Shown: positions 1,097-5,860 of the stretch, piece by piece | How positions within the stretch are numbered: position 1 is the first letter of the stretch | Layout of the letters: each line of letters starts with the position of its first letter | From: Planctomycetota bacterium | GTDB lineage: Bacteria > Planctomycetota > GCA-002687715 > DRQF01 | Assembly (NCBI GenBank): GCA_036479435.1 | Contig: JAZGFI010000209.1 | Span: 1-28,092, forward strand | Length of the DNA: 28,092 nt | Reading direction: 5' to 3' | Position numbers and translations under genes: made by a program | The notes under the pieces: generated by a model | What the model saw: only the letters and a program-made list of their open reading frames with translations | What the model was told of the DNA's origin: nothing | Database searches by the model: none

Positions 1097-1139
1097 AAAA
1101 AGAAAAGCGCGCGTTCAGGATCTCTCCTAAACGCGCGCT
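1097..1139 (-). terminator. Rho-independent terminator, strongest for the minus strand, possibly bidirectional
   Basis: Minus strand reads AGCGCGCGTTTAGGA-GAGA-TCCTGAACGCGCGCT then TTTCTTTTT. It has a GNRA loop and lies between convergent genes. Confidence 0.85.
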
Positions 1140-1182
1140 CTTCGGTTGAGGTTGGACGTTCGCACGCTAGCCGAGGGTGTAG

Positions 1183-2112
1183 CTATCGAGCGACGGCTGC
1201 CTTCCTCTTAAGCGAAGTCAGTTGGGCCTTTTGTTGGATCGGTTCCCAGTAGGCTGTGGTTTCGATGACACTCGTGCGCGACTTGCTCTTGTAGCTCAGA
1301 CGGCTTTTGAGTGGCGTGTCGTCACTGAGCGAATACCAAAGCTCATACTTGGTCTGCGGTGCCGACTTACCGGTTTTTTGCTTGGGCCAACCCGAAACGA
1401 TCGAGCCACGAATGTAGGCGATGTTTTTCCTACCTTCGCGTTTGACGTTGACGAGCTGAAACTTCGCCACGAGCTTGCCGCAATTGGCGACGTTCAAAAG
1501 ATCACCTTTCCAAGTCCAAGTTTCGCGCGCCGCCGTGCTCTTACCGGACAAGATCGCGCCAAATCCGGCCAAGCTTGATCCCAGCAAACCTTGCTGGGTG
1601 GTCATGAGCTTTCAGCACTCACCGGGACGGGCTTCGCCGCGACGGTCGATGGGAAACGCGAGGGTCTCCTTCATCTCGCCGGCAAACCAAGTCTTGTCGG
1701 TATGGCAGCCCTGGCCTTTTTCGTAGCCGCCACCGCGCGTCCACACAATGTCCGAAGCTGACTTCTTGCCCGCTTTGGTCGAACTTCCGAGGTAGCTCGC
1801 CGCCATGAAACGGCCCGAGGTGAGGTAAGGGCTTTGACGCCCCTGCTTTTTGAAAGTCCAATGCAGAGTCGCGGTCTTAGTAGATTTGCCAGACATGCCA
1901 GACCTGCCGTCTTTTTCGACGTAGTTCCAGCTTTCGGTGGCCTCATAGCTGACAACGAGCCGCTTGTCAGCCGGAGGCTGAAAAGTGAGGTCGTAGTGAC
2001 AAAGCGAAGGCAGCGCCAAGGCATCGGGCGAAATAATGACGCTTTGGCCAGCTATCGAGAGGGCCGACAGCCCCAAAATAGGCCCGAGCAACAAGAATCC
2101 GAGTGATTTCAT
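1183..2112 (-). CDS. Secreted protein (309 aa) with in-frame UGA at codon 167; candidate selenoprotein with Cys166-Sec167
   Basis: ORFs 1612..2112 and 1183..1605 are in the same frame: GAG TGC TGA AAG CTC ATG. GGAGG...AGGA lies before the ATG at 2112, followed by signal peptide MKSLGFLLLGPILGLSALSIA. No clear SD precedes the ATG at 1605. A SECIS-like hairpin follows the UGA and a terminator follows the final stop. Confidence 0.7.
1571..1611 (-). promoter_or_regulatory. Bacterial SECIS-like stem-loop
   Basis: After the UGA the mRNA reads AAGCU CA UGA CCA CCCAGCAA GGU UUGCUGGG A UCA AGCUU. The upper stem is a perfect 8 bp, the lower stem starts at +1, and the GGU loop is at +22..+24. Confidence 0.65.
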
Positions 2113-2384: not shown

Positions 2385-3008
2385 ATGCCTCCCCACCGCC
2401 CAACACAAGAGGACCTCCTAATCGAGCGAAGTTTGGCGGGCGATCCTGCCGCTCTTCAGGGTTTGCTCGTACGCAACCTCCCCACGCTTGAGACCTATAT
2501 TCGTCTCCGCTCCCCGGATCTTGTTGGGCCTCGCGAGTCAGTCACCGACTTGGCCCAATCGACTTGCCGCGAGATCCTCGAGAATCTCGACCGCTTCCAG
2601 CACGGCGGGGAGGGTCATTTTCGGGCTTGGCTCTACGAAACGGCCGACCGCAAGCTGAAAAATCGACGCCGCCACAACCATGCCCAACGCCGCGACGTCA
2701 AGCGAGTACGGCCGATGGATTCCGCCCACGACGCAGCGCGACATCTAGCTGGATTTCGAGGCGTGCACACGCCTAGTGCCCACGCGGAGGCTCGCGAAGA
2801 ACTCGACGAACTCGTCGACTGCTTGGATGAAATCGGCGAAGAGCCACGGCGGCTCATTCTCTTGGCCCGAATCGCCAAGATTCCCCATCGCGTCATCGCC
2901 GAACGACAAAAAATGAGCGAGGCCACCGTGCGGCAAGCGCTTCACCGGGCCCTGGCCGCGCTCGCCGAGCGGATCGCTTCGCGGCGGCGACCTGAGCCGC
3001 CGTCATGA
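2385..3008 (+). CDS. ECF RNA polymerase sigma factor (kinase-associated type)
   Basis: Sigma2 (DLAQSTCRE, FRAWLY) and sigma4 (IAERQKMSEATVRQALHRA) motifs. The stop overlaps the kinase start (ATGA). Confidence 0.92.
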   Translation: MPPHRPTQEDLLIERSLAGDPAALQGLLVRNLPTLETYIRLRSPDLVGPRESVTDLAQSTCREILENLDRFQHGGEGHFRAWLYETADRKLKNRRRHNHAQRRDVKRVRPMDSAHDAARHLAGFRGVHTPSAHAEAREELDELVDCLDEIGEEPRRLILLARIAKIPHRVIAERQKMSEATVRQALHRALAALAERIASRRRPEPPS

Positions 3009-5860
3009 CTCAATCTGACACCAACTATGTGCAGGATCTTGTCGCCCATTGCATCGATCTCTTCGATTGCGAAGGCGCCGGTGGCGTAGACGAGTTTCTT
3101 GCCGACAACCCGCATCGACTCGAGGTCCGCGAGCATCTGGCAATTTTGTCTGACAATGGGCTCTTGAGCCCTCCCGCCCCGCCGTCCATCCAAGGGTATG
3201 AGCTTTCCTATCGTATTGGTGTCGGCGGTATGGGCGAAGTTTGGGCCGCTAACGATCTTCGAACCGGCACGTCCGTGGCCATCAAGACCATTCGTTGTGA
3301 CCTCTTCAATTCACCTCGCCTCATCAAACGACTCCAACGCGAAGTTGAAACGGTCGCCAGGCTCCAACACGAAGTCATCGTACCGGTCATCGACTCCGGA
3401 GAGAATGTCCTTGGTCCCTGGTTTGCGATGCCGCGAGTTTTAGGGGCTTCGCTTGAGTGTTTGCTCAACGTTCTTCCAGGAGTTTCACAAGGCGCCTCTC
3501 CCCTGGCCTTGGCATTGGAGCAGGCCGGTATCGGGGACTTGGACCAAGACGCCAAGCTCTTTTCTTTGGACTACGCTCGCTCGGTCGCCTACATCGGAGC
3601 GAGCGTTGCCGACGCTCTCGCCACCGCACACGCCGCCGGTGTTCTCCATCGCGACATCAAGCCCTCGAATATCCTGATCACACCCAAAGGCGAAGTGCGT
3701 TTGATTGACTTTGGCCTCGCGCGCGACGAACTGCAAAGCCGCATGACGGCGACGGATTCACCCATGGGTTCACTGGCCTACATGCCCCCCGAGCAGCGCG
3801 CTGGCATGCAGGATCTCGACGCGACCGCAGACATCCATGCTTTGGGCGCCACGCTTCACGAACTCGTCACCGGAAAACCGCCGCGGCCCCAAGACGAGCG
3901 AGGAACTTCGGGTTCCAACCCTGGTGACGATTTGGCACCTGGTGGTTTAAACATCGTGATCGAAGCTTCGATCCGGCCGCAACGCAAACACCGCTACTCA
4001 AGCGCCGCGCAATTGAGGGACGACTTGGAGAGAGTGGTTGCCAAGAACTCTCCGAGACCACCGCGCATTCCTCTTATTCATCGGTCGATGGAGGCTGTCC
4101 GCCGCCACCCTGCTCTCGCACTTGGCATCGCCTTGGCCCTCGGCGCGCTGCTCACTTGGGGTCTGCGCGGCAAGGCACCGCAACCAAGGCCGCCGGTCCA
4201 AAATTTAGGGCCCAAATTCTCAATGGAAGAAGCCGCGAAACTTGCTCGTCGACTCTCTGCAATTGACCGACGTGGCCTTGGCAAAAAAGTGACATTGGAG
4301 GAGAGGCTGGAGATCAACCGCGCAATCTTGACTTTCTATGCGCCTTTTCTCGACCGAGCCGATAAAGACATCCCGAAAGTCGCCCTCGCCGACGCATCGG
4401 TCGCGATGAAAACCCTGGCGCAATTAAACTACACCTGCGGAAGTCTGGGCGAAACAGACCAAGCTCTAGAGAACGGACTCAGAGCCTACAAAGAACGACT
4501 GCGGCGCGGGGACGAGATTGGACAAACTCTGGCGGAGTTTGCCGCACTCGAACGCACAGCGGCCCTCCGAAGTGCTTCTCTGAAGCAGCTCGACGAGTCA
4601 ATTAAGCACTTCAGAAACTCGGCGGGATACTTTCGGCGCGCTCGCCCCAAACTAGACAGATCCAAGCACAACCTACTTGATCGCCGCTTGGCGGGGACGC
4701 TCGGCGAGTTGGCCAATGCTCACCGGCTCATCGGCCAAGTCGAGGAATCACTGGCAGTCTGGGATACGGCCATCTCAATGGCAGATTCAAACCCCAAGCT
4801 GCAAGCCTTGGCCATTTCATTGCGCGGCCGCAAGATGCTTGTTCTGAGGGCGAAGGGTCGAGCGCGAGAGGCCGCGAGCTTGCAAGAACTCTGTGTCACC
4901 GCGATGAAGCGCATGTTAGAGGACCCAGAATCGGGCTTGAGTCGAAAACAACGCATTGATTTCTTGCAGGTCCTTGCCCAGGACATTCACCTATCTGGCC
5001 AAAACAGATCCGTTAGCGACTCCGGGCCCTACCTCGCAGAGGTCGTCAAACTGCGGCGGCTCGATCTTGTGGAGCAACCGAAGCACAATGTAGCGCGCGT
5101 CACTTTGGCACTGGCGCTCAGCAACTATGGCGCACATCTCGCGCGGCATGATCCCGAAGGCGCAACTGAGCAACTGCAGCAGTCGCTACGTCTCCTAGAC
5201 GAACTGCCGAAAGAACACGACAAACTAGCGGACGTGGAATCGACGCGGTCCTTGGTACTCAACAACCTTAGCATCGCGCAGCTTCGCTTAGATCCAAGCC
5301 GGGCCGCCAAATATTCGGAGCAGGCCATCTCGGCGCTCAAGGAACTCATCGAATCTCAGCCGGCTCAAGCCGAGTCTTTGAGCATGCTCGGCGGCTTCCT
5401 ACAAAACCATGCCAATGCCTTGATGGACTCGAATCGACCCCGCGAGGCCGTCGAAGTAATCCTTGAGGCGATCGACGCCCAAGAAAGAGCCTTCGCGCTC
5501 AACAAACGCTCTCTGCGCATCCGGTCAACTTTGCGTGTTCATCTTGACGAGTTGATCGCGCTTTACGCAGCCCTGAATGATCCCGTTTCCACGGTCTCGT
5601 TGCTGAAGCGCGTCGAGACTTTCTTCGAGAATGAACCCGAAGAACAACGCTGGATTGCGGAACTCTACTGGAAACAAGCTCGGTCCCCCGAGCAGCCTCG
5701 AGACGCCCATGCCAAAGTCACTCTTGAGGGGACTTTGCGCTGCATCAGACGCGCGCTCAATGCTGGCGTGGAAAGCCCTATCTCCATCGCAGCCAACTCA
5801 AGACTCAGTGGGCTGTTGCTCGAGGCTCAGTATCTCGAACTTATCGAGCGCAAAGAATAA
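3005..5860 (+). CDS. Hanks-type Ser/Thr protein kinase with TM helix and C-terminal TPR-like region
   Basis: Motifs GVGGMGEV, VAIK, HRDIKPSN, DFGLA and GSLAYMPPEQ. Hydrophobic segment ALALGIALALGALLTWGL. Helical repeats of the LALALSNYG / LVLNNLS type. Confidence 0.95.
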   Translation: MTQSDTNYVQDLVAHCIDLFDCEGAGGVDEFLADNPHRLEVREHLAILSDNGLLSPPAPPSIQGYELSYRIGVGGMGEVWAANDLRTGTSVAIKTIRCDLFNSPRLIKRLQREVETVARLQHEVIVPVIDSGENVLGPWFAMPRVLGASLECLLNVLPGVSQGASPLALALEQAGIGDLDQDAKLFSLDYARSVAYIGASVADALATAHAAGVLHRDIKPSNILITPKGEVRLIDFGLARDELQSRMTATDSPMGSLAYMPPEQRAGMQDLDATADIHALGATLHELVTGKPPRPQDERGTSGSNPGDDLAPGGLNIVIEASIRPQRKHRYSSAAQLRDDLERVVAKNSPRPPRIPLIHRSMEAVRRHPALALGIALALGALLTWGLRGKAPQPRPPVQNLGPKFSMEEAAKLARRLSAIDRRGLGKKVTLEERLEINRAILTFYAPFLDRADKDIPKVALADASVAMKTLAQLNYTCGSLGETDQALENGLRAYKERLRRGDEIGQTLAEFAALERTAALRSASLKQLDESIKHFRNSAGYFRRARPKLDRSKHNLLDRRLAGTLGELANAHRLIGQVEESLAVWDTAISMADSNPKLQALAISLRGRKMLVLRAKGRAREAASLQELCVTAMKRMLEDPESGLSRKQRIDFLQVLAQDIHLSGQNRSVSDSGPYLAEVVKLRRLDLVEQPKHNVARVTLALALSNYGAHLARHDPEGATEQLQQSLRLLDELPKEHDKLADVESTRSLVLNNLSIAQLRLDPSRAAKYSEQAISALKELIESQPAQAESLSMLGGFLQNHANALMDSNRPREAVEVILEAIDAQERAFALNKRSLRIRSTLRVHLDELIALYAALNDPVSTVSLLKRVETFFENEPEEQRWIAELYWKQARSPEQPRDAHAKVTLEGTLRCIRRALNAGVESPISIAANSRLSGLLLEAQYLELIERKE

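Follow-up and report, generated by a model that had tools for sequence, protein, structure and literature searches.

Is a coding sequence that one in-frame UGA divides into two open reading frames a single selenoprotein gene, a pair of neighbouring genes, or a gene that has been broken by mutation? This question is raised by a locus on a contig of a planctomycete bacterium, which was analysed as one stretch of 28,092 nucleotides (hereafter the window). The list of open reading frames for the window cuts the locus into an upstream part of 166 residues ending in ...RPGEC (1612..2112) and a downstream part of 140 residues (1183..1605), the two halves being in frame and separated only by the TGA at 1614-1612. 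In what follows, we examine the layout of the gene, the fate of the TGA in its homologs, the hairpin that follows it, the selenocysteine (Sec) machinery of the genome, and the protein itself. From this evidence we consider it very probable that 2112..1183 is one intact selenoprotein gene in which UGA167 is read as selenocysteine.

Organization of the gene

The coding sequence runs on the minus strand from an ATG at 2112-2110 to a TAG stop at 1185-1183, and neither its N-terminal nor its C-terminal half contains a further lesion. Translation through the UGA gives a product of 309 residues with U at codon 167 (P0001). In this respect the first-pass annotation, which had described one gene cut by a single in-frame UGA directly after a Cys codon, with a strong Shine–Dalgarno sequence, a signal peptide and a terminator after its second half, is borne out by the features collected in Table 1. 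The putative signal peptide consists, in a by-eye reading, of MK, a hydrophobic run and a final SIA before GQ. A comparable hydrophobic leader is found in all full-length and N-terminal members of alignment A2, with the exception of the 5′-truncated fragment P0029.

Table 1. Features of the candidate selenoprotein gene, with positions in the window.
Feature	Position	Strand	Remarks
Shine–Dalgarno sequence GGAGG	2124-2120	minus	7 nt upstream of the ATG at 2112; read from sequence
Whole CDS	2112..1183	minus	309 codons + TAG, one in-frame UGA at codon 167
Putative Sec-type (secretory) signal peptide, residues 1-21 (MKSLGFLLLGPILGLSALSIA, then GQ)	2050..2112	minus	read by eye
Cys166 codon TGC	1617-1615	minus	immediately 5′ of the UGA; TGC or TGT there in 6/6 loci
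UGA codon 167, very probably read as selenocysteine	1612..1614	minus	TGA in 6/6 loci found independently of the TGA
Full SECIS-like element including lower helix	1571..1611	minus	AAGCU/AGCUU + UGA/UCA
Putative SECIS upper stem-loop CCCAGCAA-GGU-UUGCUGGG	1580..1598	minus	8-bp stem, 3-nt loop
Terminator-like hairpin	1143..1102	minus	19 pairs + T-run; 40 nt past the TAG

The TGA is also stable at the level of the assembly. Contigs from three runs belonging to three studies are identical over 1100-2300 and carry the same TGA, at depths of 16, 71 and 5.5, and two of these runs may be the source of the window DNA. One further run, X8, covers 1259-1484 only, outside the TGA.

An ECF sigma factor gene adjoins the gene in the window and in one of the related loci described below (L027); the two sigma factors are unrelated to each other (E 6.9). 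No conserved gene neighbourhood was found among the loci, and no mercury, organometal or ABC-transport neighbours tied to the gene were found.

Conservation of the UGA among homologs

Six loci, comprising the window, genome G045 and the metagenome contigs L024-L027, were all found without using the TGA, and all six carry Cys-TGA at the same alignment column, followed by an in-frame continuation; neither TAA nor TAG occurs there. Where measured, their protein identity to the window is 31-47%. When 401 genomes of the phylum were searched with a profile, three real matches emerged. In G045, which belongs to a different family, the aligned column reads ...EGAC-U-KALTTREGL..., and the four metagenome loci, recovered with a motif from the C-terminal half (alignment A4), all read ...GEC/GAC-U-[KT]ALT... 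in frame; the same motif had no match in genome contigs, as against these four in metagenomes. At the level of the order, two of 23 genomes matched, and the class of G045 (four genomes) contained no further member. A weak partial match in genome G101 (E 1.7e-4) was dropped, the open reading frames there showing no recognisable homolog. A pattern search of genome contigs further provided a new locus, L047, which is a close relative of L024, together with L048, whose DNA is that of L022; both are kept outside the count of six because the pattern required the TGA and the hairpin and they are hence not independent.

The protein databases tell the same story in fragmented form. Among 1.84 billion proteins, the 33 representative matches consist of 18 N-terminal fragments, nine C-terminal fragments, five uninterrupted proteins and one weak match that was left unclassified. 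Fifteen of the 18 N-terminal fragments, as well as both of two further fragments, end on the Cys before the UGA, and the other three (P0021, P0033 and P0034) end in Ser or Thr instead. A relative 77% identical to the window protein (P0005) is split at the same place. Throughout the searched databases, each selenocysteine-type member is stored as two “hypothetical” fragments; these lie below the length band of a search for proteins of near length with the 309-residue read-through product, which for this reason returned no match. Both flanks of the UGA can be aligned across selenocysteine-type and uninterrupted homologs, and about 25 residues after U are conserved, the uninterrupted homologs included ([KT]ALT[TS]xxGLxGSxLxGFxAxLxGK).

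These observations bear on the idea that the TGA is a true stop between two separate genes whose halves have become fused in some lineages. Gene callers do list the halves apart throughout the databases (18 N-terminal and nine C-terminal), yet the starts that they assign to the C-terminal fragments are inconsistent, and in every case the interruption is a TGA that leaves the frame intact. Past this TGA, the first in-frame start codon is reached after 3, 26, 15, 28, 20 and 59 codons in the six loci; the window, with its ATG only three codons downstream, would suit a second gene, but in the other five loci a start 15-59 codons downstream would leave the stretch of about 25 conserved residues untranslated. 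Moreover, one barrel is modelled from both halves together (see below). We therefore hold two separate genes to be very improbable.

That the TGA at 1612-1614 arose by a nonsense mutation in a pseudogene, or by faulty sequencing or assembly, is the least probable of the alternatives that we weighed. The first-pass annotation had cautioned that the window is rich in pseudogenes, and in G005, the closest relative, the site is occupied by the sense codon GAC. For this gene the caution does not hold, because the same TGA stands after the same Cys in six independently found and divergent loci, is matched by the split at the same place in P0005, recurs in the identical contigs of three runs and is accompanied by no other lesion in either half. 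The divergence of the six loci likewise disfavours their being copies of one mobile pseudogene.

One feature of the family departs from expectation. Most selenoprotein families have Cys forms, and the pairing of Sec with Cys is a standard criterion of prediction, although not a mechanistic requirement. Here that pairing is not seen, Cys being absent from the Sec column in all five uninterrupted homologs: the two Cys-Sec positions hold Ala-Asp in P0003, Gly-Gly in P0008 and Arg-Ser in P0009, with other residues in P0006 and P0007. G005 belongs to the same family as the window genome and is its closest taxonomic relative with the gene; it possesses the Sec machinery, yet it carries a form with neither Sec nor Cys. 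The first-pass annotation had looked to homologs for either a conserved TGA or a Cys at codon 167, and the answer is divided, the TGA being conserved and the uninterrupted proteins having Asp, Gly, Ser and others, but no Cys, at that codon.

A conserved hairpin downstream of the UGA

The 41 nucleotides after the UGA form the stem-loop that had been described in the first-pass annotation, with its GGU loop at +22..+24, and the pairings were found as described there. In the upper stem, CCCAGCAA (1598-1591) is paired with UUGCUGGG (1587-1580) around the loop at 1590-1588, so that the hairpin starts 13 nt past the UGA and the loop lies 21 nt from it. The lower helix pairs AAGCU (1611-1607) with AGCUU (1575-1571) and UGA (1604-1602) with UCA (1578-1576). 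Across the loci, 60-71% of the cells of this lower helix are paired and the register shifts, which makes it only partly conserved; it is treated as an optional part of the element. Since CAG (Gln) is the reverse complement of CUG (Leu), a QQGLL peptide encodes a hairpin by itself.

Folding energy by itself is not significant and has been left out of the evidence. In the window, the upper hairpin by itself has an energy of −11.3 kcal/mol and the 41-nt fold one of −20.1 kcal/mol (z = −1.42, with 21 of 200 shuffles folding equally well); in G045 the comparison with shuffles is not significant either (z = +0.02). Genome-wide, 140 of 174,166 TGA triplets precede a hairpin of similar kind with a GG loop, 23 of them with at least 40 open codons on both sides. 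In the window alone the hairpin is not beyond chance, and its significance stems from its conservation in other genomes.

That conservation is substantial. A hairpin of 7-8 bp with a GGN apex is present 13 nt past the UGA in all six loci, with a loop of 3 nt (5 nt in L027). In the alignment of the six, 47 of 48 cells are paired and three of the eight pairs have changed on both sides, the covariation resting on six sequences and mostly on G045. The observed combination of pairing and covariation was reached by 10 of 500 shuffles, and controls slid along the alignment pair in 19-54%. One compensatory change recodes both sides, from CAG/CUG (Gln...Leu) in the window to CGG/CCG (Arg...Pro) in G045. 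The uninterrupted homolog of G005, which is the only uninterrupted relative with DNA, pairs at three of the eight equivalent positions and has no hairpin. Hence the conservation on which the first-pass annotation had made its hairpin depend is found together with compensatory changes where the UGA is present, and the structure is absent from this uninterrupted gene.

The bacterial SECIS model described in section 5 of a 2026 selenoprotein catalogue has a loop of 3-9 nt, a stem of 4-16 bp, G in the first two loop positions, a spacing of 16-37 nt between UGA and loop, and an energy of −7.5 kcal/mol or lower (PMC13188914). All six hairpins lie within every one of the limits given in that section, with energies of −11.1 to −14.7 kcal/mol for the hairpin alone and a spacing of 21 nt (PMC13188914). 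An Rfam scan of 1000-2400 at E values up to 10 returned three chance-level matches and no SECIS family.

Selenocysteine machinery and an in-genome comparator

The genome contains the whole set of genes whose presence the first-pass annotation had proposed to look up: selA (526 bits), selB (323 bits), selD (372 bits) and tRNA-Sec (67 bits) are all above the curated cut-offs, and selD has an in-frame TGA of its own, read SSGGUAAK. Of this set, selA and tRNA-Sec are also present in G045, the second genome carrying the TGA form. The same genome as the window also has an AhpC-TSA/Redoxin gene (C69, 66 bits) with the motif GSWUTYC, followed by a hairpin with a 13-nt spacer, an 8-bp stem and a GGU loop. 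The geometry of the hairpin in this Prx-like UxxC selenoprotein gene is identical to that in the window gene. More generally, bacterial selenoprotein genes of the SelB/SECIS type likewise combine an in-frame UGA beside a Cys, an intragenic stem-loop with a G-first loop, and a full sel set.

Could the UGA be read through without selenocysteine, the hairpin slowing termination while a near-cognate tRNA inserts Trp, Cys or Arg? The conserved coding sequence past the TGA and the lack of a nearby start would fit such read-through equally well, and so would the lack of Cys at this position in the uninterrupted homologs. However, a complete Sec system is kept in the genome, a UGA beside a conserved Cys is the usual setting of Sec, and the hairpin agrees with all criteria of the bacterial SECIS model as given in the catalogue (PMC13188914) and shares its geometry with that of C69. 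In addition, were any residue acceptable, at least some of the six loci should have a sense codon instead. This alternative appears improbable to us, and the insertion of selenocysteine remains the preferred reading.

Protein family and predicted fold

At E values up to 1, P0001 has no match in Pfam, and neither P0001 nor three uninterrupted homologs have one in NCBIfam. The predicted model is a single β-barrel built from both halves of the protein (pLDDT 84.8, pTM 0.80). In structure alignments the model matches lipovitellin (1lsh_A, Z 14.2, 211 residues, rmsd 4.9, over residues 45-296), as well as vitellogenin (Z 12.2), ApoB100 (12.1), MTP (10.6) and LolA-type chains (6.4-8.4); Foldseek ranked the same groups first, with TM scores of 0.43 at most. 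The predicted fold resembles the LolA/LolB/LprG carriers and the barrel at the N terminus of lipovitellin, vitellogenin, ApoB and MTP, without a family match to any of them. Membrane β-barrels also reach Z 9-11, and sequence identity to the lipid-binding barrels is 4-12%; the likeness may be one of general barrel architecture only. We know of no lipid-binding β-barrel protein that carries Sec.

The sequence comparisons suggest that the family is distantly related to DUF6263 (PF19777). Profile-profile alignment (hhalign) gave a probability of 84% and an E value of 7.6e-6 over 129 columns, the two families have a common P-G/E-K-x-V-x-x-G-D-x-W segment, and the Atlas structure neighbours of the uninterrupted homolog P0003 are DUF6263 clusters (TM 0.64-0.67). 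The DUF6263 Pfam model itself does not match P0001 at E values up to 1. DUF6263 occurs in 56 of 151 genomes of the phylum and has no match in the window’s own genome, and no in-frame stop was seen among the DUF6263 matches listed. A literature search for DUF6263 by name found nothing; the domain is uncharacterised and has no known function, and therefore it explains nothing further about the gene.

Comparison with known selenoproteins

The 2026 catalogue distinguishes in its Table 1 119 selenoprotein families and subfamilies, which are defined by Pfam, NCBIfam, cd or PTHR models (PMC13188914). Judged by Pfam and NCBIfam, the window protein would fall into none of those 119 families, and the supplementary tables of published selenoproteome surveys may carry a provisional name for it. 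This agrees with the first-pass annotation, which had recognised no selenoprotein family in the sequence: the protein has no Pfam or NCBIfam match and is absent from the families of that table (PMC13188914). It differs from the known selenoproteins of the SelB/SECIS type in that its fold is not thioredoxin-like and no Cys-form homolog was found.

A motif of adjacent Cys and Sec (CU) is found in several of the tabulated families, namely SaoL, SaoB (CUxxT), SaoC, HgcA, MbdU, the Csac_0668 2Fe-2S protein and KCU-star, and several of these CU-motif families comprise exported proteins or binders of metals or organometals (PMC13188914). The window gene has in common with them the Cys and Sec side by side, here as C-U-[KT]-A-L-T, and an annotation that stops at the Cys. 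None of their NCBIfam models matches the window protein, and a functional analogy with them is something that we infer from the motif.

A vicinal Cys-Sec pair is also known from mammalian thioredoxin reductase, where a C-terminal Gly-Cys-Sec-Gly forms the redox centre. In both proteins the pair sits on a flexible segment, which for the window protein is a prediction, and could form an eight-membered selenenylsulfide ring. The differences are equally evident: in the window protein the pair is internal (166-167 of 309) and reads G-E-C-U-K, with Glu and Lys/Thr rather than Gly as flanks, Pfam detects no flavin or pyridine-nucleotide domain, and the protein is probably exported.

A proposed mechanism and candidate functions

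On the reading that we prefer, the 8-bp hairpin with its GGU apex, 13 nt downstream, would serve as a bacterial SECIS when the ribosome reaches UGA167, recruiting SelB-GTP-Sec-tRNA(Sec); selenocysteine would then be inserted and 142 more codons translated. The 309-residue product would be exported by means of its N-terminal signal peptide and is predicted to adopt a single antiparallel β-barrel with an internal helix, resembling lipovitellin/ApoB/MTP and LolA, in which Cys166-Sec167 would be placed on a flexible, low-confidence loop joining the two halves of the barrel.

Since the proposals for function come from fold resemblance and motif analogy only, they are offered with restraint. We take the Cys-Sec pair to be the probable working centre of the protein. 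That it is an envelope redox site which would cycle through a selenenylsulfide has in our estimate about an even chance. A more tentative possibility is that the barrel holds a soft-metal, metalloid or chalcogen ligand to which the pair binds, and we would give some other role a smaller, though real, chance. It is also conceivable, if rather unlikely, that this would be the first selenoprotein on a β-barrel of the lipid-carrier type (DUF6263, LolA, lipovitellin), with the mobile Cys-Sec loop acting on a hydrophobic or soft-metal ligand inside. If so, it might for instance reduce lipid hydroperoxides in the planctomycete envelope or, alternatively, capture and hand over an organometal, metalloid or chalcogen species.

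With 18 split fragments as against five uninterrupted proteins among the representative clusters, the form with Sec is, unusually, the main form of the family. The aligned sequences suggest that lineages losing Sec also drop its partner Cys (C-U to G-G, A-D or R-S) and do not substitute Cys for it. If the lipid-carrier reading is right, such a joint loss would make Sec irreplaceable for the chemistry of the protein, and not merely a better Cys.

Significance

Annotation routinely splits selenoprotein genes, and this family would be an instance. To the roughly 119 selenoprotein families inventoried so far, which in the tabulated catalogue are dominated by redox proteins of the thioredoxin fold (PMC13188914), it would add one that is exported and unlike thioredoxin. 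Because the relatives without Sec have lost the Cys too, the family may serve as a natural experiment on whether Cys can stand in for Sec. For one branch of DUF6263, a large and uncharacterised superfamily in Planctomycetota, a reactive Cys-Sec centre would provide the first functional handle. Finally, the compact and conserved SECIS, with its 13-nt spacer, 8-bp stem and GGN loop, is common to known selenoprotein genes of the same genome, and such an element may be useful for finding the remaining selenoproteome of the planctomycetes.

Gene structure and reading frame

The gene under study lies on the minus strand (2112..1183). The ORF split described in the first-pass annotation, at one in-frame TGA after a Cys codon, is seen in the sequence, together with the strong Shine-Dalgarno motif and the terminator that it had reported. 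With the TGA translated as Sec (U167), the product has 309 residues, and its N-terminus (MK, a hydrophobic run, then SIA/GQ) looks like a signal peptide when judged by eye. Contigs of three runs from three studies match over positions 1100-2300, including the TGA, and two of these runs may be the source of the window DNA itself. A Pfam search with the neighbouring 348-aa ORF returned no family.

Features of the window and of other contigs of the same genome (G000)
Feature	Position	Strand	Remarks
N-terminal ORF	1612..2112	minus	166 aa, end ...RPGEC
C-terminal ORF	1183..1605	minus	140 aa, start MTTQQ
In-frame TGA	1614-1612	minus	sole separator of the two ORFs, which share one frame
TGC (Cys) codon	1617-1615	minus	immediately 5' of TGA
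GGAGG		minus	7 nt 5' of ATG
Terminator-like hairpin	1143..1102	minus	19 pairs and T-run
ECF sigma factor gene	2385-3008	plus	divergent from gene under study
Ser/Thr kinase gene	3005-5860	plus	951 aa, TPR repeats; 4-nt overlap with sigma gene; divergent from gene under study
348-aa ORF	21-1067	plus	convergent with gene under study
tRNA-Sec	C117:33648-33741	minus	adjoins selD, selA (loci L010, L011, L013 span C117:33648-36236)
selD	C117:33916-34842	minus	between tRNA-Sec and selA; itself a selenoprotein, in-frame TGA read as SSGGUAAK
selA	C117:34884-36236	minus	adjoins selD
AhpC-TSA/Redoxin gene (L032)	C69:3997-4740, TGA at 4347	minus	66 bits; in-frame TGA in GSWUTYC
MsrA-like candidate (L033)	C274:3989-4858, TGA at 4501	minus	in-frame TGA in ...AIFGMSUYWVGE...

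Conservation of the Cys-TGA junction

When whole genomes were searched with stops read through, one relative turned up in 23 genomes of the order (G005; 36% identity), an uninterrupted gene of 297 aa with Ala-Asp at the Cys-Sec of the window and a single TGA as its terminal stop. Extending the search by profile to 401 genomes of the phylum brought in G045, a genome of a different family, whose gene reads ...VDRRGCCSEGAC-U-KALTTREGLPGSS... with its TGA exactly at the column aligned to that of the window. This genome also has selA and tRNA-Sec, and the selenocysteine reading thus withstands a comparison that was able to refute it. A fourth, weak match of the profile search (G101) was set aside, its homology not being confirmed.

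With HMMER run exhaustively against 1.84 billion representative proteins, 33 matches were obtained at E up to 1e-3, namely 5 uninterrupted proteins, 18 N-terminal fragments, 9 C-terminal fragments and a weak 492-aa match whose sequence was left out of the comparison. In 15 of the 18 N-terminal fragments the last residue is a Cys aligned to C166 (typically ...RGAA[SD]PGEC), and the two additional N-terminal fragments from a word-indexed search share this end; the other three of the 18 (P0021, P0033, P0034) end on Ser or Thr near the same column, and could represent Ser/Thr-Sec variants or else genuine truncations. When metagenome contigs were searched with a motif drawn from the C-terminal half and independent of the TGA, four loci were obtained (L024-L027), all of them running upstream in frame across a TGA immediately after Cys (HGEC-U-TALTSQQGLLGS, QGEC-U-KALSTQQGLLGS, EGAC-U-KALTTRQGLLGS and QGEC-U-TALTTQQGLLGS, respectively).

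The first-pass annotation had named a nonsense mutation as the alternative and codon 167 of homologs as the place to look. There, the TGA after Cys is kept in 6/6 loci found independently of it (window, G045, L024-L027), none of which has TAA or TAG at that column, but the other expectation, Cys at the Sec column, fails in all five uninterrupted homologs, which have A-D, G-G, R-S or other residues instead. In some members (G045, L025, L026, L027) the motif is extended to C-x4-C-U by a third Cys four residues upstream. In the alignment, the uninterrupted homolog P0008 keeps this upstream Cys, with Gly-Gly where Sec-type members have Cys-Sec; it seems to have lost both Sec and the adjacent Cys together, with no Cys replacement. 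One further contig locus (L047), L048 (the same DNA as the G045 locus) and the database member P0020 are likewise assigned to Planctomycetota.

Sec-type members share a conserved stretch of about 25 residues following the TGA, and from GLxGS onward the conservation extends to uninterrupted homologs. The nearest in-frame ATG, GTG or TTG lies 3, 26, 15, 28, 20 and 59 codons past the TGA in the six loci, and the starts that gene callers assign to C-terminal fragments are inconsistent in position. An AlphaFold model (30-row alignment; pLDDT 84.8, pTM 0.80) is a single barrel with strands from both halves of the gene, the Cys-Sec pair lying on a low-confidence linker (pLDDT 67 and 53 for the 10-residue blocks around 161-180). 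The conserved continuation, the distant starts and the one-barrel model argue against a genuine stop at the TGA.

The probable SECIS hairpin

On folding, the RNA 3' of the UGA forms the pairings of the first-pass description (AAGCU/AGCUU, UGA/UCA and CCCAGCAA/UUGCUGGG), with the GGU loop at +22..+24. Taken alone, this hairpin is unremarkable: its energy has z = -1.42, with equal folding in 21/200 shuffles, and in a genome-wide scan (stem at least 7 bp, at most 1 G-U pair, loop starting GG, spacer 10-16 nt) 140 of 174,166 TGA triplets were followed by a similar hairpin. At least 40 open codons flank the TGA on either side in 23 of these 140 places (e.g., C17:17550 and C6:7324, both plus strand), most of which look like chance or wrong-frame matches in GC-rich DNA.

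Upper stem and loop at six loci aligned without gaps, the stem-loop occupying the same columns throughout
Locus	5' arm	Loop	3' arm
Window	CCCAGCAA	GGU	UUGCUGGG
L022 (G045)	CCCGGGAG	GGA	CUCCCGGG
L024	CCCAGCAG	GGU	CUGCUGGG
L025	CCCAGCAG	GGC	CUGCUGGG
L026	CCCGGCAG	GGG	CUGCUGGG
L027	CCCAGCAA	GGG	CUGCUGGG

Conservation of the hairpin is borne out across the six loci, with standard pairs in 47/48 cells of the upper stem and two-sided changes in 3/8 pairs, a combination attained by 10/500 shuffles; when the partner strand is slid by 1-3 columns, pairing falls to 19-54%. A Gln (CAG)/Leu (CUG) pair in the window becomes Arg (CGG)/Pro (CCG) in G045, so that the amino acids differ on both arms, a compensatory change for which protein constraint alone would hardly account. 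The lower helix (AAGCU/AGCUU, UGA/UCA) is present in the window but only partly conserved elsewhere, its register shifting and 60-71% of cells being paired. In the uninterrupted G005 gene, pairing is possible at only 3/8 equivalent positions.

As set out in the SECIS section of a 2026 catalogue, the bacterial model comprises a loop of 3-9 nt, an upper stem of 4-16 bp, a G in the first two loop positions, a UGA-loop spacing of 16-37 nt and an energy of -7.5 kcal/mol or lower (PMC13188914), and the hairpins of the six loci agree with it on every point (UGA-to-loop distance 21 nt; -11.1 to -14.7 kcal/mol for the hairpin alone). The comparison argues that the hairpin 3' of the window UGA is a SECIS element.

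Selenocysteine machinery and other probable or candidate selenoprotein genes

In the G000 assembly (5.47 Mb, 299 contigs, 92% complete), the search for Sec machinery recovered all that was sought, i.e., selA (526 bits), selB (323 bits, above cut-off), selD (372 bits) and tRNA-Sec (67 bits), and the organism can thus read UGA as selenocysteine. The AhpC-TSA/Redoxin gene on C69 is followed by a hairpin (13-nt spacer, 8-bp stem, GGU loop) identical in geometry to that of the window gene. UxxC is a known selenoprotein type, and this gene probably encodes a Prx-like UxxC selenoprotein, liable to splitting by annotation. The gene on C274 has a hairpin of 7 bp (loop GGUU) 3' of its TGA and a PMSR (MsrA) match below cut-off (21.6 against 23.7 bits), and is a candidate MsrA-like selenoprotein.

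Objections and overall assessment

Several points speak against the selenoprotein reading. Among the five uninterrupted homologs there is no Cys form, which is unusual for a selenoprotein family. Covariation was judged on a small sample (six loci), with much of the signal from G045, and folding energies are unremarkable, including that of the window. Since CAG and CUG are reverse complements, the QQGLL peptide alone encodes a hairpin, and an Rfam search of the element matched no family. These objections appear outweighed by the conserved Cys-TGA with its in-frame, conserved and start-less continuation. We consider it very probable that window 2112..1183 is a real, intact selenoprotein gene, for which we infer selenium insertion itself from sequence.

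The read-through protein matched no Pfam and no NCBIfam family, both at E up to 1. The catalogue describes 119 prokaryotic selenoprotein families and subfamilies, each by a Pfam, NCBIfam, cd or PTHR model (PMC13188914); no Pfam or NCBIfam model of its Table 1 matched the protein, and supplementary tables of the surveys could hold a provisional entry. Its thioredoxin-like families, identified by cd numbers only, have a fold unlike the predicted barrel. The family is not in the lists checked (Table 1, Pfam, NCBIfam), and the recoding mechanism is of the known SelB/SECIS type.

Fold and possible role

The top structure match of the model is the lipovitellin N-terminal barrel (Z 14.2, 211 residues aligned, rmsd 4.9), followed by vitellogenin (Z 12.2), ApoB100 (12.1) and MTP (10.6), with autotransporter and porin barrels at Z 9-11 and LolA/LolB-type carriers at Z 6.4-8.4. 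Foldseek ranked lipovitellin, ApoB, LolA-superfamily and LprG chains highest (TM 0.43 or lower). The ESM Atlas neighbours of the uninterrupted homolog P0003 are DUF6263 clusters (TM 0.64-0.67), and hhalign matched the family to 12 DUF6263 domains of the phylum (probability 84%, E 7.6e-6, 129 columns). On these two matches, the family is predicted to be a distant branch of the DUF6263 superfamily that bears Sec and has a barrel like those of lipid carriers. DUF6263 is common in the phylum (56/151 genomes, often in several copies each); G000 gave no match to it, and a full-text search found no paper on it.

No conserved gene neighbourhood was seen among the loci compared. In L027, as in the window, an ECF sigma gene adjoins the copy; the two sigma factors are unrelated.

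In the proposed role, the protein would be exported, and the mobile Cys-Sec loop of its barrel would serve as the reactive centre. There is roughly an even chance that this loop acts as a selenenylsulfide redox site. More tentatively, the loop may instead bind a ligand, which could be a soft metal, a metalloid or a chalcogen; this option is raised by analogy with several catalogued vicinal-CU families (SaoL, SaoB, SaoC, HgcA and MbdU; PMC13188914) that are linked to metals or organometals.
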